Shown piece by piece: positions 4,079-53,087 of a DNA stretch of 56,125 nt. Numbering within the stretch: position 1 is the first letter of the stretch; each line of letters begins with the position of its first letter. Source of the DNA: a virus; the IMG/VR virus record IMGVR_UViG_3300045988_020923, positions 1 through 56,125 of that record; one strand, written 5' to 3'. The position numbers and the translations under genes were made by a program. The notes under the pieces were generated by a model, which saw only the letters and a program-made list of their open reading frames with translations, ran no database searches and was not told where the DNA came from.

Positions 4079-7000
4079 TGTTGATATTACAAGCTTATCC
4101 GTAGAAATCTCTGCGGAATCGCAGGGTGCAGAGCTTAACATTGACAAGCTTGCTACCGCAATTTCTAATTTGCGGACAAAGGGCAGCGTTGGCAAGGTTT
4201 GTACAAGCCTTGATAAACTGTCTAGTTCCATTTCCGCGCTGAAACAAGCGTCTGCCGGCATTTCCGGTCTGGATAAGGTCACAAACTTCCTGAATGGCAT
4301 CTCTTCTGTCAACACAACTGCTGGCGTGAAGGGCGTTAACTCTGTTGTAAATGCCATCAAGAAGATTCCAAACGCGGTATCTGCTCTGAACGGCGTGGAC
4401 TTCTACTCCATGTCTGGTAGCATCACGCAGCTGACGAACGCTCTTGCGCCCCTGTCCATTTTGGATATTTCTGGTTTGAAATCGCTTGGCAGCGCATTCA
4501 AGGCGATTGGTACTGTGCCAGACCTGACTGACAAGCTAAAAGCGGCAGACCTTGATTCTTTTGCGGATTCTTGCCAGAAGATATCCACCGCTCTTACTCC
4601 CCTTGCATCTCAGCTTGAAACGGTAGGCAACGCCTTTGCAAAACTACCTCCGCAGTTGAGCAAGGTTGTGACACAGGCTAACCGTGTGACCGCTGCCAAC
4701 GAACGGCAGAAAAAAAGCTACATGAGCCTTTCCAGCCAAATGAACAGCTTCATGCGGAACATGGCAAAGCTGGTCTCGTTAAAAGCTATTGCGACCTATC
4801 TTGGCAACGCAGCGGAGAAGTTCAATAGCTATTATGAAGCTGCAAACCTGTTCGGCGTGTCCATGAAGGGGCTAACCGGCGAAGCAAGCACGTTCATCAA
4901 CAAGATGGAGACCCTGCTTGGCATCGACCCCACCGAAGCCATGAACAACATGGCAACGATTCAGGGTCTGACCACTTCGTTTGGCTTGGCAAGCGACAAG
5001 GCGTATGTGCTGTCCAAGAACCTGACGCAGCTTGGCTACGACCTTGCTTCTTTGAAGAATATTCCTGTTGCGGAATCCTTTACGAAGATTCAGGCGGCTA
5101 TTTCCGGCGAACTTGAACCGATTCGCCGTCTGGGTGTCGATATTTCTAATGCTCGGTTGCAGCAGGAACTGCTTAATCTTGGCTATTCGCAGAGCGTTTC
5201 TACCCTGTCTCAGGCTGATAAGGCTGTTCTGCGGTACATTGCCATCATGAAGCAGACCACCGATGCACAGGGAGACTTCGCCCGCACTCTGTCCAGCCCT
5301 GCCAATATGATTCGCATTTTGCAGGCACAGCTGAACAGTCTGGCTCGCGCTGTTGGTTCTCTGCTCTACCCTGCTTTAAAATCCATTCTCCCGCCGCTGA
5401 TCGCGGCTGTTGAGCTGGTCAAAGAGCTTGTGACCGGCATTGCATCCATGATGGGCGTCAAGGTGGAGTTCCCGGATTTTAGCAGCGCAAGCGATGCTGT
5501 TGGTGGCGTCACGGATGCAATGGATAACACCACCAAAGCGACCGGCAAGGCTGCAAAGGCGTTCAAGAACTACATCATGGGCTTTGATGAACTGAACGTC
5601 ATCCAGAAGGACAATGGCTCTTCCGGTGGTTCCGGCTCTGGTGTTGGCGCTGCTGGCAACATCTTAGGCGATGTAGACCTGTCCGGCTACGATATGTTCA
5701 AGAACTACGTTGGTTCTTCCGTTGATGAAATCAAGGCAAAACTTGAAAAGCTGCTTCCGCTTATCTCTGGAATTGCAGCCGGTTTTGCAACATGGGCAAT
5801 TAGTAATGCCGTTCTTACTGCTCTTGAAAAAATCAAAGGCGAAGGTTCTTTGATTGAAGCAGTCTTGAAGCTTTGGAAAAACCCGATAATGGCAGCTGCG
5901 GTTGCCGTTGGCATTATCGTTGCAAGGTTTGTAAGCCTTTATCAGAATAGTGAGAAATTCCGAAAAGGTCTTGAGCGTGTAAGGGCGCTTGTCTACCTCG
6001 CAGCGGAAGGATTCAAACAGGGCTGGAACATATCGCTTACCGATGGGAAACTTGGAGAATCCATTGAATACCTGAAAGAATCTCTTTCCAATCTCGGACA
6101 ATCTATCCTGAATTTGCTCCCTGAAAGCTGGCAGGAAGGAATCACTTCCGCGTTTGATTCCATTTCAAAAGTTGTGAAGAAGCTCGACCTTGACGTTTGG
6201 GATTTAGTTACAACGCTTGCTGGCATCGGACTTATCGTATCCGGTCATCCTGTTGCGGGTCTTGCTGTTATAGGATTTGAAGCTATTTCCGTAGCCGTTC
6301 GCGGGCTTGGAAGTGAAAATCAGAAAACTGCCTTTGGAATGGAAACCGACTGGTTCAATTCCTTCAAGTCTATTGGCGAAAGCGTTGCAAACTTTGCGGC
6401 TGCTGCCGTTACCGCGATTGGGAACATCATTAACGATATTGCAATCTTTGTTGGTTGGATTAAAAACGGAGTTTCCGAAACAGACCGCTTGGATTTGCAG
6501 ATGAACGGCAACTTCATTGAAAACTTTGTGATGGGCATTGCCCAAACAATCCACAATATAGGCGTTTTTGTTGGTTGGATTACAAGTGGCGTTGATGAAG
6601 CTGACCGGCTGGCAGTTGCAGCGAACGGAAATTTTGCAGAAAAGTTCATCCTTCTGATTGCTGACGTTATCAACGGAATCAAAGAAGCCGTGAAGTGGTT
6701 CGGAAAACTGATTGAAAAAATCTCGAAGTTCAATCCTGTTAGCGTTGGCAAAAACATCATAGATGGCATTACAAAAGGCATCGTTGGCAAAAAGAACGTT
6801 GCGGATGATGCTGTCAAGGTTGTAACGGACGGAATCCAAGAAGAAGCACAGACTGAACTTGGCATCCACTCCCCTTCCAAAGTTTTCAAGGGCTATGGTG
6901 TCTACCTCATAGAAGGTCTTGTGAACGGCGTCTTAGCCACTAAAGACCTTGCGGTGAAAGCAATCCAGTCCGTGTCTGACGCGGTAAAGACCATCGGTTC

Positions 7001-14613: not shown

Positions 14614-14776
14614 TTGTGGTAAAATAACATCAACAAATCCACCCGGCCTCTCGAAGAAGCACAAGAGGGCGGATATCTGAAATCCCCTGCTTTGCCGAAG
14701 CCCTGCGTGCCACGCGGGGTACTTTGTAGGCAAAGTGTGGGATTTTGTTTTATTTGCACTAGTTTTGTCGAAACCC

Positions 14777-14955: not shown

Positions 14956-15474
14956 ATGAGCTATTATCCGACACCCGGAACACCCTACGTTCCGCAGCAG
15001 CCTGTCAATCCTTACGGCGGCATGGGCGCAGTCGGGCTTGCCACTCCCCTGCCGAACACACAGATGCAACAGGCACAGCCGCAGCGTCCGCAGCCGATGA
15101 ATGGGCAGCAGCCTGTTCAGCAGTCGGCACAGGACGGAGGTTGGTTACTCGGCAGACCTGTTTCCAGCAGGGAAGAATTTCTGGCGATACCGTCAGACCT
15201 GTACGGCAGACCGACCTACTGCCCGGACTTACGCAGCGGTGTGATCTACTGCAAGCGGCTCAACCCGGACACCTGCGAATCCTATGTGCAGGAGTTTTAC
15301 AGCCCGGAAGCATGGCGGCAAATGCAAGCACAACAGGCGCAGCAGACCGCTGCACCGACACAGCAGTATGTGCCTGTTGAAGAGTATAACGCTCTAGTCC
15401 ACAGGTTGGATGAACTGGAAAAATGGCAGAAGAGCTTTTCTAAGCCCGCTACCGCAGCGAAGAAAGGAGAATAA
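14956..15474 (+). CDS. Hypothetical protein with Gln/Pro-rich N-terminus
   Basis: 172 aa, AAGGAGGG RBS; first gene of the cargo cassette. Confidence 0.5.
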   Translation: MSYYPTPGTPYVPQQPVNPYGGMGAVGLATPLPNTQMQQAQPQRPQPMNGQQPVQQSAQDGGWLLGRPVSSREEFLAIPSDLYGRPTYCPDLRSGVIYCKRLNPDTCESYVQEFYSPEAWRQMQAQQAQQTAAPTQQYVPVEEYNALVHRLDELEKWQKSFSKPATAAKKGE

Positions 15475-18733: not shown

Positions 18734-18938
18734 CTTAATCACCTTTTTTCAAAATGCAAACGGATTACTATTCGCTGCTATTGTCAGTGCCACATTAAAA
18801 GCAAACATTATAAACGCGGCCACTGCGACTACACAGGGGTTTACTATTGAAAAAGCTAGGTGGGGTGACAATTCCCACATCTCCTAACGATGGGCGATAG
18901 CTGCCTGTTCTATTCTCTAGCGTTTCATTGCTTAAATT

Positions 18939-19181
18939 TTAATACCTCGTGTTCCACCGCTTTACAAGCGTTGCTCGTCCATCATCTAAAACTTCAAGAA
19001 CGCCATCGTAATTAAAACTGTAATATGCTTCTTCTTTCATCATATTGCATTTACATTTCTGACAAAAAATAGTCCAAACAGTTTTATAAGACATTCCGCT
19101 ATTGCTTTTACGCAATCCATCATGGCTTATTCTAACATTTTCTCCGCAAAACGGACATGGTTTCAATTCGCGTTCTTCCAT
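18939..19181 (-). CDS. Lar-family restriction alleviation-like protein
   Basis: The LKPCPFCG start and C-terminal RWNTR are the hallmark ends of the Lar family. Confidence 0.7.
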   Translation of the reverse strand: MEERELKPCPFCGENVRISHDGLRKSNSGMSYKTVWTIFCQKCKCNMMKEEAYYSFNYDGVLEVLDDGRATLVKRWNTRY

Positions 19182-19184
19182 ACG

Positions 19185-19757
19185 TCAATCCTCCAAGAAA
19201 TCCTCCAACTCAATCTTCCCATCTGCCGCTGCAACTGCCAGAGCGTACACGAACTGTCCAATCGTCATGCCGTGTCGCCTTGCTTCACGGTTGATATACT
19301 TGCGCTCTTCCTCGCTCATAAGGATGGTAATGCGCTTTGAACGCTTACCGTCACCGCTTGCAACACCCTGATGCGATACTGGCATCGGAATTTTTTTCTT
19401 TGTCAAGCCAGCTTCGGCAAGTGCGCTGGGAACATCGCCTTGTTCGATAAGACGTTGAACTTCTTTCGCCTGTTTCAGCTTCTTTGGCTTACTTTCGCTT
19501 ACTACGGCATTGTTTGGCTGTGTTTCGCTGTCTTTGGCTTGCTTCGGCTTAATACTGCTTAACTGTGTTTCACTGGGCTGTGTATGGCTGTCTGTGGCTT
19601 CACTGGGCTTAATCTGTGCTTGCTCGGCTTCGTTTGGCTTTGCTTGGCTTACTTCTTCTTCCTTCGGCTCACTTCGGCTTAATGGCTGCTCCGAAAAAAT
19701 AGGCTGAAAATCAAACCCGCCAAGCAAGCCTGTGGATTTTTTGCTGGTTGATTTCAT
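19185..19757 (-). CDS. Ribbon-helix-helix ParG-like centromere-binding protein candidate
   Basis: C-terminal KRITILMSEEERKYINREARRHGMTIGQFVYALAV is RHH-like. It lies downstream of parA. ATG 19757 is coupled (ATGA) to the upstream gene. The N-terminal half is a 10-aa periodic repeat. Confidence 0.6.
   Translation of the reverse strand: MKSTSKKSTGLLGGFDFQPIFSEQPLSRSEPKEEEVSQAKPNEAEQAQIKPSEATDSHTQPSETQLSSIKPKQAKDSETQPNNAVVSESKPKKLKQAKEVQRLIEQGDVPSALAEAGLTKKKIPMPVSHQGVASGDGKRSKRITILMSEEERKYINREARRHGMTIGQFVYALAVAAADGKIELEDFLED
19461..19690. repeat. About 23 tandem copies of a 10-bp unit (plus-strand consensus TNTTTGGCTT) inside the ParG-like ORF
   Basis: 13 of 23 consecutive 10-nt blocks carry GGCT at the identical phase; the others carry CGCT, AGCT or TGCT variants. 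Confidence 0.8.
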
Positions 19758-20149
19758 TCTTCTTCCTCCCAATCTTCATCAAGGTCAGGAACGGTCGGCA
19801 ACGGCATCCAGTGAGTTATATTATGCGGCTTTCCGCTTTTGTCCCGCCATTCCTTAAAATCTTCTTCATAGCCTACAATTTCTACATCGTATTCGTCTTT
19901 GCTAAACCCGATAACGTATGGGTTTAGTTCATCTGGCATTTCATCTTCTGATTTCGCCCATTGATTATTTGCAAGCTCTTTCTGCCACTTTTTGCAATAC
20001 TTTTCAGCTAGATACCACTGAGAATGAAACGCCATTTCTTTCTCTTTATCGGAAAGGTCATTAAATGAAAAACCAAAATTGATAACGTAGACTTGCTCCG
20101 TGTCATCAACACAAGTTGCATTCAAAAGATGTGGGTACAAATCGCTCAT
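19754..20149 (-). CDS. Hypothetical protein with DUF551-like C-terminus
   Basis: 131 aa; NITHWMPLPTVPD motif; coupled to parA (overlapping stop and start). Confidence 0.5.
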   Translation of the reverse strand: MSDLYPHLLNATCVDDTEQVYVINFGFSFNDLSDKEKEMAFHSQWYLAEKYCKKWQKELANNQWAKSEDEMPDELNPYVIGFSKDEYDVEIVGYEEDFKEWRDKSGKPHNITHWMPLPTVPDLDEDWEEEE

Positions 20150-20916
20150 TTTTCTTCCCCCTTTACAATTTTCTGTGCCAACGCCTTGAAATCCTCTGCA
20201 CTGGTACTCTTTGCCGTGTCACCGCTAAACAAGCTGTGCCGTTCTGCCTGTGCCTTACGAACGCCCATAGACGGTCTAATCTTCACATCCAGCAGGGTTG
20301 TTCCCATGCTCTGCGCAATCACAGGAAGCTGCTCTACAACCTCTTTGGACAGGTTCTCGCGGCTCTTGTACTGGTTCAGAAGCAGACCTTCAATCTTCAA
20401 AGTCGGATTGAAGTATCTGCGGACATCGCCGATAGTCTGCGAAAGCTGGCTCAAACCAGCCAGTGCGTATCGGTCTGCTGTGATGGGAACGATGATGCTG
20501 TTGGCGGCGATCAGTGCGTTCACAAGCGCAAGACCAAGCTGCGGTGGAGTGTCCAGCACAATGTAATCGTACTGCCCGGACACGCTTTCAAGGGCTTCTC
20601 GCAGCCGGAAGTTCTTGCCCATGTCCCGGACAAGCTGCTCGTCAATGTCCTTCAATGCGTTGTCGGACGGAAGAATGTCACCAGCTTCACAGTGCTGGAT
20701 TCCTTCTTCGACTGTTCCTTGCCGGGTCATCACATCAAACAGGGTGCATACGTCCTCTGTCTGTGCGCCGTATGTGTCCGTCGCGTTGCACTGGGCATCG
20801 CAGTCCACCAGTAGGACTTTCTTGCCAAGCAGCTGCAATGCACCAGCCAGACAGGTGCTTGTGGTGGTCTTTCCTGTGCCGCCTTTCTGGTTGGCGACAG
20901 CTATGATTTTTGCCAT
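20146..20916 (-). CDS. parA: ParA-family partition ATPase
   Basis: Deviant Walker A motif (KGGTGKTTTS in IAVANQKGGTGKTTTS); 256 aa typical length. Confidence 0.9.
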   Translation of the reverse strand: MAKIIAVANQKGGTGKTTTSTCLAGALQLLGKKVLLVDCDAQCNATDTYGAQTEDVCTLFDVMTRQGTVEEGIQHCEAGDILPSDNALKDIDEQLVRDMGKNFRLREALESVSGQYDYIVLDTPPQLGLALVNALIAANSIIVPITADRYALAGLSQLSQTIGDVRRYFNPTLKIEGLLLNQYKSRENLSKEVVEQLPVIAQSMGTTLLDVKIRPSMGVRKAQAERHSLFSGDTAKSTSAEDFKALAQKIVKGEEK

Positions 20917-20931
20917 TTTATCACTCTTTCT

Positions 20932-21123
20932 TTATTCTTTCACTGGTTCAGGCATCGGCATCCAATGGGTGAATTTCTGATATTTTGTCCTCCACCAACA
21001 TTTCCCATTCCATTGAGCCGTAATCGTATGCGTTCCACAGAAATAAGTCCCATTAGAAACGCAAGACACAAGATACGTTCCCGGTTCTTCTGGTAGCCTG
21101 TCTTTCACACTAATCCATTCCAT
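20932..21123 (-). CDS. DUF551-like protein
   Basis: 63 aa from MEWISVKDRLPEE with AAAGGAG RBS; C-terminal FTHWMPMPEP. Confidence 0.6.
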   Translation of the reverse strand: MEWISVKDRLPEEPGTYLVSCVSNGTYFCGTHTITAQWNGKCWWRTKYQKFTHWMPMPEPVKE

Positions 21124-21148: not shown

Positions 21149-22261
21149 TCAATGTGCTGTATCTGACCACTTTTGCAATGCGTCAATCTCATAGAAAGCC
21201 GGAAGATACTCTTCAATCGCGCCGTCTTTCTTCAAGCTACCAATCAGATACCGCTTCGGGTGGTCAGGCCAAGGGTCACGGTTGATTGAAAGAATATCCG
21301 CACACGCAGCCTTTACGATGTCATAGACCGCATCTCTCCGCTTTGGCAGCTTGATAGATGGGTGCTCTTCCATCATCTTTACTTCGACAACCTTTGCAAC
21401 TTCGATGCACTCTTGAACGGATAGAGCATCGCACACAGACCAGTCGTACCCTTCGTATCCGCTTGTGCGGGACTTTCTGGCGGCTTTTTTGATTTCCGGC
21501 TTAGAATTATCCGCCTCACAATTAACCTCGCTAGAATCGGCATCTATGACGGGCTGCTTGGATTTGTACCCGAATCGAAACTCAACTGCTACTACCTTTC
21601 GCCCTGTGCAAATCTTCTCAAAGTCAACAACAATGTCTGAAACATTGCTGATCTCTTCCACTGCTGGTTCAAGAACTCTGCGGCGTAAAGCCCGGAAGTC
21701 GTCATAACTTGCATCGTTTGCCCCCAAGTGGTCACGCAGCTGTTTCAAACCAATCTTGTTCGATGTTAGAGAGCGATTCATCCAATCTCGAATCATGCTG
21801 TACATCAGAATAGATGCTTGCTGCTTCATCCCGATTGTATAGCGCAGACGGTATTTGACATAGCCGCTTCTTGCAATGTCGAAAAACACAGGCCGCAAGT
21901 CAGGATTACAGTTGATTGAAACGTCATAGGACAAGGATTCTCGATTGAACTTGACCTCTGCCTTTGTGAACAGCGGATACATCACATATTCTGTTCCATC
22001 TGCATTCAGTGGTACTGAAACCACGTTGCCCAAAAAGTGCTTAACCTGCGACTTCAAGTTCTTTGAATTGAGCTTCAAATCCAGCAGCTTGCAATATTCA
22101 GCCAGCGTAAACGACACGTTAGAGCTTTCGGGGTCTCTCGGATTGATACGGCTCAGATAGACCTCAAGCAGCCGAAGCTCGCCTGCTGTGTAGTCCGTAA
22201 ACTTCGCCCAAACCAATGCCTTGCTCTTTTCGACAAGGTTGTTTCCTGTTAATTCTGGCAT
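21149..22261 (-). CDS. Plasmid-type replication initiator (Rep_3/RepB-like)
   Basis: The N-terminal NNLVEKSKALVWAKFTDYTAGELRLLEVYLSRI pattern is typical of iteron-binding initiators; iterons lie immediately upstream. Confidence 0.75.
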   Translation of the reverse strand: MPELTGNNLVEKSKALVWAKFTDYTAGELRLLEVYLSRINPRDPESSNVSFTLAEYCKLLDLKLNSKNLKSQVKHFLGNVVSVPLNADGTEYVMYPLFTKAEVKFNRESLSYDVSINCNPDLRPVFFDIARSGYVKYRLRYTIGMKQQASILMYSMIRDWMNRSLTSNKIGLKQLRDHLGANDASYDDFRALRRRVLEPAVEEISNVSDIVVDFEKICTGRKVVAVEFRFGYKSKQPVIDADSSEVNCEADNSKPEIKKAARKSRTSGYEGYDWSVCDALSVQECIEVAKVVEVKMMEEHPSIKLPKRRDAVYDIVKAACADILSINRDPWPDHPKRYLIGSLKKDGAIEEYLPAFYEIDALQKWSDTAH

Positions 22262-22286: not shown

Positions 22287-22315
22287 ATTATACCACTGTA
22301 TCGTGTACACGTCAA
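22287..22315 (-). promoter_or_regulatory. rep promoter (TTGACG-17-TATAAT, extended TG) with an iteron half-site in the spacer
   Basis: The minus strand reads TTGACGtgtacacgatacagtggTATAAT; the spacer contains TGTACACGAT. Confidence 0.55.
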
Positions 22316-22350
22316 TGATTCTGTACACAATTATTTTTCAACAATCGACT

Positions 22351-22455
22351 TCCACATTCTGTACACGATACTCCACTTTTTGTACACGATACCCTCCACT
22401 TCTTGTACACGTTCCTCCACTTTATGTACACAATGCTCCACTTTTTGTACACGTT
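22351..22455. repeat. Five direct iterons (TCCACTTTTTGTACACGNT), spaced 21/23/21/21 bp
   Basis: Copies start at 22351, 22372, 22395, 22416 and 22437. Confidence 0.85.
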
Positions 22456-22505
22456 CTTACTATATATATAAACAAGAGATAAACAAGAGATAAATAATCA
22501 TCATC
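22456..22505. other. AT-rich segment with AAACAAGAGATAAACAAGAGATAAA direct repeat (possible unwinding element)
   Basis: ctatatatataaacaagagataaacaagagataaataatc lies immediately after the iterons. Confidence 0.4.
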
Positions 22506-22630
22506 AAATAGTGACGACGATACATTTTCAACAATTTCTTCTCTTCAATGGGAAGATTGTGGAAAACGACAACTTCTTTTGCTGAATAAGAAACGTCCAT
22601 CAAGCCCTATAATCTATCTGACGGTTCTAT

Positions 22631-22819
22631 CGTGTACAGAAAATGGAGTGCAATCACACCAATAGGGGACGAATTGACAAGTCATGCTTTGATGAACGAA
22701 AATTTCACGCTAGTTCGTTAATTACATCCGAAAAAATCCACTATTTACGATTCTATGGGGGACAAAATGACAACCCAAAATCATATTTATAACAGGCCTA
22801 TTGTGTACAAAAAGTGGAG
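22631..22819. repeat. Two outlying inverted iteron copies plus two GGGGACNAAWTGACAA direct repeats
   Basis: Inverted iterons at 22631-22648 and 22802-22819; GGGGAC repeats at 22665-22680 and 22758-22773. Confidence 0.65.
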
Positions 22820-22861
22820 CGCGTCCCCCTGTATACCGCAAAAACTGCGATAATTCGACAA

Positions 22862-27506: not shown

Positions 27507-28130
27507 ATGAAAAAAATAAAAGTAAGAATCACATTCACCGAAGCCGTTCTCGGCACTTGGCCTAGCAACCAGAACATCGCGCGAGAGTTTATCGCCAGCA
27601 AGTCCCCTGATGCAAACACCATCGAGGACGAAGTGGCCGCTCTGGGCGCAGATGCTGTGGCAGACAAAAGCATGACCGTGTTTCCTCGCAACGAAAACGG
27701 AGACCCAATCCTGTATGACTACCAGATTAAGGGTTTTTTCAAGGATTCCTGCGGTATGCTTTCCCGTATTGGCGGAAAGACCGAAACTGGCAAGAAGAAG
27801 GCCGTGAACGAAAGCGGCAAGCTGACGGCCTACAAGAAGGTCATTGACGGTCTGATTTTCGTTCAGCCCCGCATGATTCCCATTCATGTGAACGGTGATA
27901 TTACCGAGTGTCAGCGCCCTCTCCGCGCCCAGACTGCGCAGGGCGAGCGCGTCAGCCTTGCCAACAGTGAGCAGATTCCCGCTGGTTCGACTTGCGAGTT
28001 TGAAATCGTTCTTCTGGACGATTCTCACGAGAAGGTCGTGCTCGAGTGGCTGGACTACGGCGCTCTGCGTGGCATCGGCCAGTGGCGCAACAGTTCTAAA
28101 GGGCGCTTTGCTTACGAAATCCTCAATTAA
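27507..28130 (+). CDS. Conserved phage protein of unknown function
   Basis: 207-aa ORF; the sequence is recalled as a recurrent early-region phage family, but I cannot name it. Confidence 0.55.
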   Translation: MKKIKVRITFTEAVLGTWPSNQNIAREFIASKSPDANTIEDEVAALGADAVADKSMTVFPRNENGDPILYDYQIKGFFKDSCGMLSRIGGKTETGKKKAVNESGKLTAYKKVIDGLIFVQPRMIPIHVNGDITECQRPLRAQTAQGERVSLANSEQIPAGSTCEFEIVLLDDSHEKVVLEWLDYGALRGIGQWRNSSKGRFAYEILN

Positions 28131-28432
28131 CCGCTATGGCAGAGCAATGCCGCGATGGGATCAGCAAGGGCAATGCGCTGATTTGACGAGACCTGCAAAG
28201 GCTATGGATGCAAGGCGTAGTTTTGATAGGCAATGGCAAAGAATAGAAACGATAGGCTAAGACATTGAGTAGCTAGGGGCAGAAAAGCTAAGGCATTGAG
28301 TTGCGAGGTAGCGCATTGCGAAGGCAAAGCGAAGCTCAGACCCGAAGAGCAAAGGCAAGGCGATTCACCGAAAAGCAACGGCAAAGCATGGTATAGCCGT
28401 GATTTGCAATGGCAAAAACGAAAGGAGACAAA
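28131..28432. repeat. Non-coding region with degenerate GCAATGSC / CAAAGGC / GCTAAGRCATTGAGT repeats
   Basis: GGCTAAGACATTGAGTAGC around 28255 and AGCTAAGGCATTGAGTTGC around 28286; GCAATGGCAAA around 28231 and 28405; no credible ORF. Confidence 0.4.
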
Positions 28433-28642
28433 GTGAAAGCATTTATTGAAGTTGCCCTGATGTGGGGCATAGCGCTGGCGGTGGTTTTGTCGGTATTTCT
28501 GCTGAACTTCTGGATGGTGCATCACATCGAAATTCTGGTGGGCTCATCAGCTGCCCGTGGAATCATCACGGTATCTGTGGCAATGGCTACGGCATGGATA
28601 CTGAGTTTTGGAGGTAATAAGAGTGAAAAGCCTGAAAGCTAA
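28433..28642 (+). CDS. Small membrane protein
   Basis: GTG start with GAAAGGAG RBS (alternative ATG at 28409); two hydrophobic segments. Confidence 0.45.
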   Translation: MKAFIEVALMWGIALAVVLSVFLLNFWMVHHIEILVGSSAARGIITVSVAMATAWILSFGGNKSEKPES

Positions 28643-28883
28643 TGTCCTTTGTACGCTTGGAATCGCGTTAGCAATCTTTTCGGTAGGATGCGGCGACGCA
28701 ATCCAGAAAAGCCAAAGCGTGGTAGCAATGTTTTGGTACGTTTTCCTTTCGTGTAGCTTCCTCGCCGTAGCACTCGTCTTGTGCGCCATTGGGGTCAGCT
28801 CTGAAAATGAACGTATTGAACAGGAAAATCGCAAAGTAAAACGCATTCCTCACCACACCAGCGAGTGGAGGGATGCACAGTGA
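28623..28883 (+). CDS. Small membrane protein
   Basis: GTG start with GGAGG RBS; hydrophobic LCTLGIALAIFSVGC and FLAVALVLCAIGV segments. Confidence 0.45.
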   Translation: MKSLKANVLCTLGIALAIFSVGCGDAIQKSQSVVAMFWYVFLSCSFLAVALVLCAIGVSSENERIEQENRKVKRIPHHTSEWRDAQ

Positions 28884-29261: not shown

Positions 29262-29329
29262 TTTTGCACAGCCAAGTTAAGCCAAAGTAAGAACAATGAA
29301 GCCTAATGAAGCCGAAGAAAGGAAAGAAA

Positions 29330-29701
29330 ATGGGCAAATACAAGAAAGAAATCAGACATTGTACGAGATGCAACAAGCCATTTTCGGCATACCCGGAAAA
29401 CGATGAAAAGCTTTGCGCAAATTGCAAAGAAGCTGACTACGAGAAAATGCTTAAGCTGAATGGATATGCGCTGAAGCATCGTCTGGTAAGAAGCGTGGGA
29501 GACTCTTTTATTCCTAATGCGTTAAGCGCCACTCGGAGGGACGATACCGTCTCCATTCAAAAAACGTGCCGTGACTGCGGCAAAGTGTTCGAGATTACTT
29601 GTGCAGAGCGCTTTTTCTTCGAATCACATAACATGGCACTGCCCAAGCGTTGCCCGGCTTGCCGTAAAGCGAGAAAAGAAGCGAGGAAGGAGAACAACTG
29701 A
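29330..29701 (+). CDS. Zinc-ribbon domain protein
   Basis: CTRCN...CANC; C-terminal CRDCGKVFEITCAERFFFESHNMALPKRCPACRK resembles the 'probable zinc-ribbon' family. Confidence 0.5.
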   Translation: MGKYKKEIRHCTRCNKPFSAYPENDEKLCANCKEADYEKMLKLNGYALKHRLVRSVGDSFIPNALSATRRDDTVSIQKTCRDCGKVFEITCAERFFFESHNMALPKRCPACRKARKEARKENN

Positions 29702-30309
29702 TGGATAACAGCAAAATCCATGAAGCTCTAATGGCTGTTCAGTCAGAGTTAAAAGCCCCGAAGGGGCAGATGAACAAGTTCGGTGGATACAAGTACCGCT
29801 CGTGCGAGGACATTCTCGAAGCGGTCAAGCCCATCTTGAAAGCGCATAACCTTGTGCTACGGCTTTCCGACAAGCCTGTTATTGTTGACAGTTGGCACTA
29901 CATCGAAGTCACTGCAACAGTTGAATCGCAGGATGGTGCCACCTACACGGTGACTGCATACGCTCGTGAGCCTGAGTTTAAGAAAGGCATGGACGATTCG
30001 CAAATTACTGGCACTGCAAGCAGCTACGCTAGAAAGTATGCACTGAACGGTCTGTTCTGCATTGACGATACAAAAGACGCTGACACGGACGAGTATCAAA
30101 AACAGACCGCAAGCAGGGCAAACAAGCCTGCGCAGAAGCAAACGGAAACGGACGCCATTCCTCCGTGCGCTTGCTGCGGAAAGCAGTTGCAGCCTATTCA
30201 GTACAACAACCGCACCGTCACTCCGCTGGAAACTGCAAGAAGCACAAAGAAACGATTTGGGCGCGTCCTGTGTTGGGACTGTGCTCAGAAACAGCCGAAG
30301 GAGGGCTAA
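29701..30309 (+). CDS. ERF-family single-strand annealing recombinase with C-terminal zinc ribbon
   Basis: The AVQSELKAPKGQMNKFGGYKYRSCEDILEAVKPILKAHNL pattern is typical of ERF; adjacent to ssb. Confidence 0.7.
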   Translation: MDNSKIHEALMAVQSELKAPKGQMNKFGGYKYRSCEDILEAVKPILKAHNLVLRLSDKPVIVDSWHYIEVTATVESQDGATYTVTAYAREPEFKKGMDDSQITGTASSYARKYALNGLFCIDDTKDADTDEYQKQTASRANKPAQKQTETDAIPPCACCGKQLQPIQYNNRTVTPLETARSTKKRFGRVLCWDCAQKQPKEG

Positions 30310-43281: not shown

Positions 43282-43307
43282 AAGCGAATACAGAATCTGA
43301 GCGCATG

Positions 43308-43335
43308 GGCTGTCAGCAATGGCAGCCTTTTTCTT
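43308..43335 (+). terminator. Rho-independent terminator ending the early operon
   Basis: 8-bp stem GGCTGTCA/TGGCAGCC, GCAA loop, TTTTTCTT tail. Confidence 0.7.
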
Positions 43336-43685
43336 AACTCCAAGAGAAAGCCCGTTTTAAGGCGTTTTAGATGCTAGGTGATAACTTTATAGACTTCGCC
43401 ACGAAAATTCGCCACAGACGCTTGTAGGCGGCTCTCCGTTGATGTTGATGGTATATCTCAAACTAGACCATGCAATTAGACCGATGCAGGAGCGTGGAGA
43501 ACGGCTTTTCGAGGTCAGACGTGAAAGTTATCGGGTCAATCAGAAAAACGCGGCAGACAGGCTCTTACACGCCTTTCCGGCGATGATAGCAGCCAGATGA
43601 GCGGATGTCAACGACTATTTGTCCAATCACAGGGCTAATTGAGACGAAAGCAAGATGTGTGAGACGAAATGGACGCGATTATTGC

Positions 43686-43750
43686 ATACCAAGCGATACG
43701 AATCGTACCAGTTGATACGAATGGTATGCGTTGGTATCATGGTATACCAA
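43686..43750. repeat. Second copy of the origin-box module (non-coding)
   Basis: GCATACCAA, GATACGAATCGTA, TGATACGAATGGTA (43713) and ATGGTATACCAA are shared with 40195-40266. Confidence 0.6.
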
Positions 43751-43823
43751 TCTTCCCCCCTTTCTTCCCCCTCTTTCCCCTACAACCCCTATTACCCCCT
43801 ATAATCCCCCTAACTCCCCCCTC
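43751..43823. repeat. Seven phased C4-6 tracts with about 10-bp period (G-tracts on the minus strand)
   Basis: The blocks tcttcccccc tttcttcccc ctctttcccc tacaacccct attaccccct ataatccccc taactccccc. Confidence 0.8.
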
Positions 43824-43844
43824 AAACAAATAAATTGTTTGAGG
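43820..43844. other. Perfect 10-bp-stem hairpin CCTCAAACAA-ATAAA-TTGTTTGAGG flanked by C5 runs
   Basis: Read directly. Confidence 0.6.
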
Positions 43845-44723
43845 CCCCCACGCAAAAATAGTGCGACAACTGAAAATGACAACAAGATGTTTTCCAAAGG
43901 TTCTTTCCCCCTACAACCCTCTATCTCCAAAGCTACACCGTTAGCCAACAGAGCAGGCCGTAAGCGAGAACTGGCGTGAGGTTCGGACTGGTGAATGGTC
44001 TACGACTATTTCACATGGAAAATTGATCTCATTTTGTAATCGGTTGAATATGTAGAAATGTTGCACATCGGCATGAGCAGTTGATTGAAAGCTGAAAGCA
44101 ACTGACCGATTGGATAGTCTTATTAGATGATTAAAAGTATTGAGGTATTTGCCGAATGGACAATCCTAGTTGATTGGTATAGTATGATTGTAGTTGTTGG
44201 TAATTAAATCGGAGAAGAACAAACCGAATCGGATGGTACGACTATTCCAGTAAAATAATAGTTAAAAAGATTGAGTAATTGTCTGCGACTATTATAATAA
44301 GTACGATAGATAAAGATTTTGAGGTAATGCGATTGGGATTAAAATTGACAGGCGTCTTGACAGTTATTGATTTTGGGAATGTCGGACGACTTAGCGACTA
44401 TCGCACCTTTCTTTCTCTAAAAGGCAAACGACTATTTCACACAAAAAATACACGACTATTTGACGATGGTTCGCAAGAAAACGCTACGACTATTACTCTA
44501 CGACTATCAGTGAGCTGCTTGCTACTATACTATATATAGGACTTTCAAAATCTAGTTGTCTGATGACTTACGACTATTCTGCGACTATTTTATTGGAGAA
44601 ACTACGACTATTGGCTACGACTATTCCGGCTGGAACGCTGCGACTATTGCTGACATCTATTGGCTATCGGGCGAAAGCCCGAAAAGAGTTGCGGCGGTAG
44701 CCGCCAATGGTTCCGCGCCGCCC

Positions 44724-44790
44724 GTGCCAGGAAGAAAGCATAATGCTAGGCTAATGCCAGGCTAACCAGGTGCCAGGCTAATGCCAGGCG
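44724..44790. repeat. Tandem 11-bp ATGCCAGGCTA-type repeats (about 5 copies)
   Basis: The run gtgccagg...atgctaggctaatgccaggctaaccaggtgccaggctaatgccaggcg. Confidence 0.7.
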
Positions 44791-45207
44791 TGGGAAACAT
44801 CAAAACCCCGCCGGGCTGGCATGGTTTGCGATGTGTTGCACCGTCTGGCATGGATCTATAACAGGGGCACACCGCTACGCCCTTATATACATTATTATAA
44901 TAGGGCGGCTGTGCTGTCCTGTATAGCGTCCGGCGTGGCGCTGGTATCTGGTATGCGCTGGAGGTGCTGCGTCGCTGTGATGTGCTCCAACGTGTCGCAC
45001 ACGGTATTATAGCCGCTTTTGTCGGTCTGGTATCGCGGGCGGTGGAATAGGGAAAATCGCAGGAAAAGCGCCTGTAAAGCCACGTGTGCCGTTTTGCGGT
45101 GTGAGCTGTATAACTGCATGAACGGAACAAAACGCGCTGTAAACGCTTGTATTGGCTGCATTGCAGCAGGGCAAAACAAAAGCCCTGCACCATTAGCAGA
45201 TGCAAGG

Positions 45208-53009: not shown

Positions 53010-53087
53010 GTTGCATTAGCTCAGTTAGGCTAGAGCATCCGGCTCATAACCGGACATACATTGGTTCAAATCCATTATGCAGCACCA
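53010..53087 (+). tRNA. tRNA with CAU anticodon (Met, or Ile2 if lysidine-modified), encoded CCA
   Basis: Manual cloverleaf: acceptor GTTGCAT/ATGCAGC, D arm GCTC-AGTTAGGCTA-GAGC, anticodon arm TCCGG-CTCATAA-CCGGA, T arm ATTGG-TTCAAAT-CCATT (one T-T mismatch), then ACCA. Confidence 0.75.

Follow-up and report, generated by a model that had tools for sequence, protein, structure and literature searches.

Why does a gene for a predicted DNA-binding protein contain a long tandem repeat whose unit is not a whole number of codons? The gene in question (positions 19185-19757, minus strand) lies in a stretch of viral DNA of 56,125 nucleotides (IMG/VR record IMGVR_UViG_3300045988_020923, positions 1 to 56,125), and we refer to this whole stretch as the window. 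The element is a Rep3/iteron phage-plasmid of the human gut, and the gene encodes a candidate centromere-binding protein of 190 amino acids (aa). A preliminary description, made from the DNA sequence alone, had noted a 230-bp array of 10-bp units within this gene and had raised the possibility of an intragenic centromere.

We consider it fairly likely that the array is a set of binding sites for the ribbon-helix-helix (RHH) protein that the gene encodes, that is, a type Ib centromere and/or operator inside the gene of its own binding protein. With slightly less confidence, we favor the broader proposal that this arrangement holds across the family: ParA-linked RHH proteins of gut phage-plasmids and integrative elements, with arrays of about one helical turn per unit, would form self-contained partition cassettes. 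In such a cassette, the reading frame for the binding protein would itself contain the centromere, and site and specificity would be inseparable. We infer both the identity of the binder (the RHH protein) and the role of the complex (partition).

A 10-bp array read in all three frames

The array (19461-19690, minus strand) consists of 23 head-to-tail units and encodes amino acids 23-99 of the 190-aa protein. The consensus of the unit is AAGCCAAANN on the coding strand, or TNTTTGGCTT on the plus strand. When the sequence is written in blocks of ten from position 19461, GGCT appears in the identical phase in 13 of the 23 blocks. At a lag of 10 bp, the self-match of the array is 0.582, as compared to 0.308 ± 0.031 for 2,000 shuffles that preserve dinucleotides (z = 8.9), and the highest value for the shuffles at any lag from 4 to 45 was 0.467. 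At lags of 20, 30, and 40 bp, the self-match is lower, at 0.49-0.51 (0.51 at lag 30). Because the match at lag 10 exceeds the match at lag 30, the unit is 10 bp, without a 30-bp superstructure; also, the lag analysis found no 3-bp signal in the array. Across the 56 kb, with all lags from 4 to 45 scored in every 150-bp segment, the array was the top periodic signal, above the Rep3 iterons. (Tandem Repeats Finder reported the array as fragments only, because its units are degenerate.) Thus, the array of the preliminary description is real, and the autocorrelation that had been proposed as a check identifies it as the strongest period in the window.

Successive units begin at codon phases 1, 2, and 3, and the coding-strand pentamer AAGCC is read as AAG-CCx (K-P), as xAA-GCC (x-A), or as xxA-AGC-Cxx (x-S-x). 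The translation of one pentamer in three frames therefore gives the linker peptide xKPxxAxxSx, as the preliminary description had deduced.

To separate the DNA from the peptide, we recoded the 77 codons synonymously, using either local or uniform codon usage. The lag-10 match fell from the observed 0.579 to 0.346 ± 0.031 (z = 7.5), and none of 5,000 samples reached the observed value. Furthermore, AAGCC occurs 9 times in the array, as compared to 2.8 times expected under synonymous recoding. The 10-bp period belongs to the DNA and not to the peptide; with ten bases per unit the frame shifts from each unit to the next, and the repetition in the peptide is a side effect of that in the DNA. The preliminary description had argued for a constraint or an origin at the level of DNA, and the loss of the period on recoding agrees with this. 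We also considered an amphipathic helix or some other peptide-level periodicity and rejected it, as synonymous codons are enough to erase the period and the prediction for this region is disorder.

Natural variation points in the same direction. We compared 75 distinct genes from 82 related loci (87-95% nucleotide identity, with no frame-breaking indels). By the Nei-Gojobori method, the array has a synonymous diversity (pS) of 0.160 and the remainder of the gene one of 0.286 (P = 0.0004, codon permutation), while nonsynonymous diversity (pN) is 0.041 and 0.016, respectively (2.5-fold higher in the array; bootstrap fraction 0.0002). The variation tracks the 10-bp register, with hypervariability (nucleotide diversity, or pi, of 0.13-0.28) in the base that follows AAGCC, whichever codon position it occupies. 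At third-codon positions within the motif, pi is 0.062, as compared to 0.155 at the weak-consensus unit positions 6, 9, and 10, a contrast that is dominated by a single hypervariable position according to a register-shift control; third codon positions elsewhere in the gene have pi of 0.14-0.23. Silent sites that are about twofold more constrained, in a peptide that is 2.5-fold less constrained, are the sequence signature of an overlapping function at the nucleic acid level, and by the same measure the protein segment that the array encodes appears to matter little.

Could the ten-residue peptide repeat itself be what is selected, for example to hold a spacer at a defined length or to mediate contacts between proteins? 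The length of the linker is nearly constant in the population, and the protein plausibly requires some linker to join the ParA-contacting peptide to the RHH domain. Nevertheless, the period does not survive recoding, the three residue pairs are what one DNA pentamer yields in its three frames, the array has higher pN and lower pS than the rest of the gene, and, as described below, the peptide is not conserved across lineages while the DNA period stays. We regard selection on the peptide as extremely improbable.

Changes in length also respect the reading frame. In the clade of the window, we found proteins of 190, 189, 188, 187, 180, 176, or 170 aa. The 180- and 170-aa variants are exactly 3 and 6 units shorter, and nearly all of the ~120 closest protein clusters are exactly 190 aa. 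None of the 82 related loci has an out-of-frame length. Contingency genes share with this gene a tandem repeat of non-triplet unit located in frame, but they have near-perfect units and switch frame by single units, while the units here are degenerate and the variants are of whole codons. We therefore rejected the idea of a contingency locus, given the ~58% match at lag 10, the whole-codon variants, and the 82 loci without out-of-frame forms.

The protein around the array begins with a basic N-terminal peptide, MKSTSKKSTGLLGGFDFQ (19698-19757, minus strand), that is conserved in all homologues; the start codon is the ATG at 19757, as in all homologues. At the other end, amino acids 142-178 (19224-19334, minus strand) form an RHH-like strand-helix-helix, preceded by a region of ~140 aa. 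The sole match in Pfam is to the NikA-like RHH family (E = 1.5e-5, 25.5 bits), under the curated cut-off of 27. In a structure predicted by AlphaFold2 (AF2), amino acids 20-87 have a predicted local distance difference test (pLDDT) below 50, as for a disordered linker; amino acids 90-115 form helices; and the C-terminal helix-helix (149-178) has a pLDDT of 82-93, with the conserved strand segment KRITILM before it. When we compared this model to the PDB with Foldseek, almost all of the top 20 matches were RHH proteins, including CopG, AtaR, Arc, ParG, NikA, CdbA, and AmrZ, with template modeling scores of up to 0.76 on the target, though for so small a domain E was above 0.5. The model is thus suggestive of an RHH fold. 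A sequence-profile search of the PDB with the 190-aa protein found no match. The preliminary description had called the protein ParG-like, and this label does not hold: there is no match to the Pfam families for ParG or omega at E ≤ 0.01, and ParG (1p94) is only a weak structural neighbor (Foldseek E = 1.8).

We also considered that the array might be non-coding DNA upstream of a shorter RHH gene. We rejected this because the N-terminal sequence MKxTSKKxSGLLG is conserved and is always in frame with the RHH domain, and this frame is held across arrays of differing length.

Arrays in divergent homologues and at second sites

The family is narrow: HMMER, run exhaustively against 1.84 billion representatives, found just 28 proteins. 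The divergent members (25-49% identity) have the N-terminal peptide and the RHH domain in common, and their linkers are unrelated in sequence and in length. Where the contig is long enough to judge the order of the genes, the divergent RHH genes follow a small ParA in Rep3 phage-plasmids or in integrase-bearing elements.

In all six of the divergent lineages, the DNA of the linker is tandemly periodic (z of 3.7-8 relative to codon shuffles). The lineage of the window has 23 AAGCC-type units with a period of 10; P0132 has 12 units of CAGnGGAAGT, also with a period of 10 (z = 6.9); and P0138/P0157/P0164 have nACAGCGnAA, again with a period of 10. Two lineages have a period of 20: P0136, with ACTTyAnGGCAGAATrnnnC, and P0142/P0150/P0160, with CAGGAAG..., whose register is kept across proteins that are 62-70% identical to P0142. 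Finally, the P0126 clade has a period of 9, with the unit CAGAATGAA. (P0139 is a short-linker member on a 567-bp contig and is uninformative. A search of metagenome and viral contigs for the P0132 and P0136 lineages found no match.) The period is not a multiple of three in five of the six lineages, and such periods are hard to explain by in-frame slippage because single-unit events would be frameshifts. Judging from these sequences, the conserved feature is an array with units of about one or two helical turns, while the motif, the peptide, and the relation to the frame vary. The preliminary description had asked whether the DNA period would be kept in homologues whose peptide is not, and it is: periods of 10, 20, or 9 are found at the same place in the gene.

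The window also contains a second, short array (29270-29329, plus strand), which the preliminary description had overlooked. The second array has six 10-bp units (AGCCAAGTTA AGCCAAAGTA AGAACAATGA AGCCTAATGA AGCCGAAGAA AGGAAAGAAA), four of which have AGCC in phase. It lies in the intergenic spacer before a gene at 29306/29330-29701, as part of a 5' leader that also contains the ribosome-binding site, and early-type genes (29330-30309) follow it. In the 56 kb, the main array and this site are the only places where at least 3 of 6 units have phased AGCC, and the mean number of such places in Markov simulations is 0.09. Although the genes on both sides are mosaic, 77 of 80 related loci keep the second array. 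Its boxes vary in the way of those in the main array: AGCC is nearly invariant and the next base is variable at the first two boxes (pi of 0.44-0.46).

To search for second sites more generally, we built a position weight matrix (PWM) from each intragenic array and scored it over five phased units. In four lineage groups (five loci), each locus has one outstanding match elsewhere. In locus L090, the match (1196-1265) scores 49.3, as compared to a null maximum of 9.4, and it consists of seven units in the spacer between the Rep3 gene and parA, ending 9 bp before the start of parA; two of these units are identical to intragenic units. In L092, the match (393-452; score 26.6, null maximum 16.2) is also upstream of parA. 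In L179, it comprises five ACAGC boxes in 10-bp phase (5600-5655, minus strand; score 32.0, null maximum 14.3) within a gene for a 174-aa protein, and in L180 it lies in a homologous gene for a 171-aa protein (position 5323, with boxes at 5330-5379, minus strand; score 40.9, null maximum 16.6). In the window, the match is the intergenic site at 29270-29329 (score 43.0, null maximum 15.3).

The motif of the second site goes with that of the main array. The units of the L090 type are CAGTGGTAGT and those of the L180 type are ACAGCGGAA. In the matrix of cross-scores, self scores lie on the diagonal at 23.5-43, and unrelated lineages mostly score below 13; the PWM from the window scores ~25 on the L179 and L180 sites. 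As far as the sequences tell, both arrays of one genome change motif together. Furthermore, in L090 and L092, the short array occupies the textbook position of a type Ib centromere, directly upstream of parA. The idea of an intragenic site array is thus supported where sequence could test it, and the recurrence of the same units upstream of parA in two lineages adds to this.

We asked whether the arrays might instead be a neutral by-product of slippage or unequal recombination in a disordered linker, with the second sites as recombination copies. The linker is a fast-evolving segment of predicted disorder, and its pN is 2.5 times the value elsewhere in the gene; the copy number shifts in 30-bp steps; the repeat of the P0126 lineage is an ordinary one of 9 bp that stays in frame; and the second site in L179 and L180 shares a peptide with the linker, which suggests the copying of a segment. 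However, slippage by a single unit of 10 or 20 bp would break the frame, and yet five of the six lineages have such periods. Nor would neutrality account for a stronger match at lag 10 than at lag 30, for the near-uniform length of 190 aa, or for the fact that two lineages have non-coding arrays of the same units just upstream of parA. Under neutrality, synonymous sites in the array should be no more conserved than those in the rest of the gene, and yet they are (P = 0.0004). On balance, we think that a neutral origin is unlikely.

Several observations weigh against the proposal that the RHH protein binds these arrays. The PWM search found no second site in L181 or L182, and the loci of the P0126 type give a weak second-site match only, which the window shares. 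The second array of the window is 9.5 kb from the RHH gene and does not adjoin parA. The second site in L179 and L180 is inside another gene, and the peptide QPNTAQYSAGQ is common to it and the RHH linker; it is possible that this site arose by segmental copying between low-complexity coding regions. (The site is in the low-complexity N-terminal part of the Q/P-rich protein of 171-174 aa, on the opposite strand to the RHH gene. The homologue of this protein in the window, ORF 14956-15474, has no AAGCC array.) Also, phages with a rep-par module of the P0126 type, which has the 9-bp CAGAATGAA array and a different beta-strand, keep the AAGCC mini-array (L160, from the same contig as L098), and in two of four such contigs the window-type RHH gene is absent within 10 kb. 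The mini-array is either a relic of a module swap or not read by the RHH protein. Finally, all of the arrays are in the sense orientation relative to local transcription, the correspondence between beta-strand and motif is weak once scored, and either of two other sets of repeats in the window, the 16 copies of ACGACTATT (43612-44647) or the eight of GCAATGGCAAAG (28133-28591), could be the centromere or a cis site of this or another system.

A recent module swap that left the mini-array as a relic is plausible from the sequences. The rep-par region of the P0126-type phages is 74% identical to that of the window, as compared to 91% for the structural genes. In L095 (10859-11215) and L096 (10829-11185), there is a 3' remnant of a window-type RHH gene (amino acids 72-190, 84-87% identical). 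This remnant lies ~270 bp downstream of the P0126-type RHH gene, after a Lar-like gene, and it is without the N-terminal peptide and most of the array. It is a trace of the replacement of the par module, or possibly a stand-alone RHH regulator. We found no window-type RHH remnant in L097 or L098. The P0126-type phages also led us to drop the idea that the mini-array co-varies with the type of RHH protein inside the window's phage group, as these phages keep the AAGCC mini-array.

Another idea that we set aside is that the class of beta-strand predicts the class of motif. By eye, RITI pairs with AGC, RVSV with CAGAAT, and RM[AC][IV]A with GGAAGT, and this pairing cuts across overall similarity of the domain. 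The cross-scores of the PWMs for these pairs are weak, and CAG is common to many arrays.

The shared orientation might mean that the repeats act in the mRNA, where they could be recognized by an RNA-binding protein or form an unstructured tract that enhances translation. In five of five loci, both arrays are sense-oriented, and the second array of the window lies in a 5' leader with its ribosome-binding site. However, these five loci amount to about four independent cases, for which agreement by chance has a probability of ~6%. Periods of 9, 10, and 20 nucleotides fit the helical repeat of DNA and the centromeres of RHH proteins; in RNA, such periods are not known to mean anything. The array has no match in Rfam, and the motif varies with a linked gene for a DNA-binding protein and not with a known RNA-binding factor. 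A role in mRNA is thus very unlikely.

A proposed partition cassette

We propose that the 190-aa product is the putative centromere-binding protein of a type Ib partition system, which combines a small ParA with an RHH protein. The basic N-terminal peptide would contact and stimulate ParA; it would be followed by a disordered linker of ~70 aa, a short helical segment, and the C-terminal RHH domain for dimerization and DNA binding. RHH dimers would load cooperatively on the 23 direct repeats, one dimer per 10-bp unit, and with about one helical turn per unit, all of the boxes would be on one face of the DNA. The resulting partition complex of ~230 bp would be moved by ParA. The short second array (29270-29329 in the window, upstream of parA elsewhere) may be a second loading site or an operator. 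A DNA signal can be written in the linker because a disordered linker tolerates almost any sequence without stop codons, and placing the array there would let the binding domain be inherited together with its site as a single unit.

The closest parallel that we know of is ParB of pCXC100 from Leifsonia xyli, a type Ib protein with a C-terminal RHH domain and an N-terminal half that is flexible (PMC3074162). In its centromere, nine direct repeats of 9 bp follow one another without interruption, and dimers bind them, one to each repeat, in a strongly cooperative manner (PMC3074162). Both systems have a small ParA, a flexible N-terminus with a C-terminal RHH domain, and contiguous short direct repeats, as predicted from sequence in our case, and a 9-bp unit is also found in the P0126 lineage. 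In contrast, the centromere of pCXC100 is non-coding and lies upstream of parA, while the 23 units of 10 bp lie inside the RHH gene; also, our profile search of the PDB with the 190-aa protein detected no sequence similarity to the pCXC100 protein.

In type II systems, ParR binds 10-bp repeats in tandem parC arrays, as in pSK41 (PMC5016525), and parC of R1 has ten direct repeats, as Dam and Gerdes state in the title of their 1994 paper (reference B13 of PMC5016525). In pSK41, R1, and pB171, as proposed here, RHH proteins coat contiguous repeats of about one helical turn. The differences are that the motor is the actin-like ParM, that the RHH domain is N-terminal, and that parC is non-coding and upstream of the operon.

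ParG, which acts at parH of TP228, and omega, which acts at the heptads of pSM19035, are small RHH proteins whose flexible N-terminal tails activate a ParA-type ATPase, and they are also repressors. Omega, whose boxes are 7-bp heptads, has several sites of action in its plasmid. The resemblance to our case is in the arrays of short degenerate boxes. However, the arrays for ParG and omega are non-coding and proximal to promoters, and the N-terminal tails are 20-32 aa, as compared to ~140 aa here. Furthermore, the ParG boxes are tetramers with AT-rich spacers (PMC3130281).

A centromere within the coding sequence of its binder would have a precedent of another kind. In Bacillus subtilis, a parS site reportedly lies inside spo0J/parB (a finding attributed to work by Lin and Grossman in 1998). 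That site is a single 16-bp palindrome, bound by a helix-turn-helix (HTH) ParB, and it hardly constrains the protein, whereas here 230 bp dictates ~77 codons. In the literature, we found no report of a long tandem-array centromere that is embedded in, and dictates, the coding sequence of an RHH partition protein.

If the RHH protein does bind the array, does the array serve partition? It could be an operator rather than a centromere, or it could be both. One possibility is that the bound array is purely regulatory, by autoregulation, as a roadblock, or by global control as with omega, and that the centromere is elsewhere, such as at the ACGACTATT repeats. Type Ib centromere-binding proteins double as repressors (PMC5016525), the second site of the window lies before early-type genes (29330-30309) and not beside parA, and a non-coding region of 1.9 kb contains 16 copies of ACGACTATT on the same strand. 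But no promoter-like site overlaps either the main or the second array, and 23 units far exceed what an operator needs. The spacing of ACGACTATT is irregular (8-390 bp), unlike the contiguous arrays of RHH partition systems. Also, because a type Ib array is usually both centromere and operator, this explanation overlaps with the one that we prefer. A strictly regulatory role seems improbable to us.

If the array is a centromere, it would be a clear natural case of dual coding, with a cis-acting array and a protein segment sharing 230 bp, and it would locate the missing centromeres of very abundant phage-plasmids of the human gut. Searches for centromeres that are limited to non-coding DNA would then be liable to miss such sites. 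The inheritance of binding domain and site as one unit would suggest a route to new partition or incompatibility types, with specificity and site diversifying together and a second short array elsewhere in the genome. More broadly, periodic low-complexity segments of proteins can be shadows of a function at the DNA level. Synonymous recoding, which removes the DNA signal and leaves the protein unaltered, provides an experimental handle.

The rep-par operon and other repeat regions

The RHH gene belongs to a rep-par operon on the minus strand whose first gene encodes a Rep3-type replication initiator (21149-22261; Pfam Rep3_N and Rep3_C). Upstream of rep are a near-consensus promoter-like site, TTGACG-17-TATAAT (22315-22287, minus strand), and five iterons of 21-22 bp, which are TCCACTTTTTGTACACGATAC repeats (22351-22453, minus strand). 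The origin-like region of the Rep3 type (22287-22820) also contains inverted copies of the iteron (22628-22649 and 22799-22820) and an AT-rich palindrome (22454-22475). We considered whether the 10-bp units might be Rep3 iterons and rejected this, as they share no sequence with the TCCACTTTTTGTACACGATAC repeats.

After rep come a DUF551 gene that adjoins parA (20932-21123), parA itself (20146-20916), a second DUF551 gene between parA and the RHH gene (19754-20149; Pfam DUF551, E = 4e-8), and, beyond the RHH gene, a Lar-like gene (18939-19181), all on the minus strand. ParA is a small deviant Walker ATPase of 256 aa without an N-terminal HTH domain. It matches Pfam AAA_31 (E = 8.5e-54), as well as CbiA, MipZ, and ParA, and PHROG 164, "ParA-like partition protein" (E = 1e-58). 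The second DUF551 gene is absent in several relatives, and there the RHH gene directly follows parA. In L092, L179, L180, L181, and L182, the RHH gene either adjoins the end of parA or overlaps with it, and in L090, one ORF lies between them. The small ParA, the order of the operon, and the format of the array are, as predicted from sequence, those of type Ib systems. A type Ib centromere is expected upstream of the operon, and in the window the array is instead inside the RHH gene; upstream of parA or rep in the window, we found no array except the iterons.

The element is widespread. The 190-aa protein is encoded by 515 IMG/VR contigs, mostly of 55-60 kb, with thousands of assembled copies, and in the protein database it corresponds to 834 clusters, all of which are unnamed or labeled "NikA-like". 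In GenBank, two faecal scaffolds of "Bacteriophage sp." match at ~90%. A search of a plasmid collection found weak matches to ParA only, and two scans of genome contigs found no match.

The non-coding region of ~1.9 kb at 43300-45200 is packed with repeats. Besides the 16 irregularly spaced, same-strand copies of ACGACTATT between 43612 and 44647, it contains GATACGAAT/GGTATC repeats (43680-43750), C-rich repeats (43751-43820), and five copies of TAATGCCAGGC (44741-44789). CGACTAT occurs 18 times in the window, as compared to 3.5 times expected. This region could be a packaging site, an origin, or some other protein-binding region.

At 28133-28591, eight 12-mers similar to GCAATGGCAAAG, several of them at a spacing of 31 bp, occupy a gene-poor stretch between the genes at 27507-28130 and 28608-28883. 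Outside the window, L181, an integrase-bearing element with a par pair of the P0142 type, has a near-perfect 15-bp tandem repeat (2841-2940; match of 0.99 at lag 15) inside a replication-like gene of the HTH_36 family.

Finally, three RNAs in the window score above the Rfam gathering score: a skipping-rope RNA just downstream of the Lar-like gene (18852-18924, minus strand; 53 bits), a DUF3800-VIII RNA (14681-14744, plus strand; 75 bits), and a tRNA-Met (53010-53087, plus strand).

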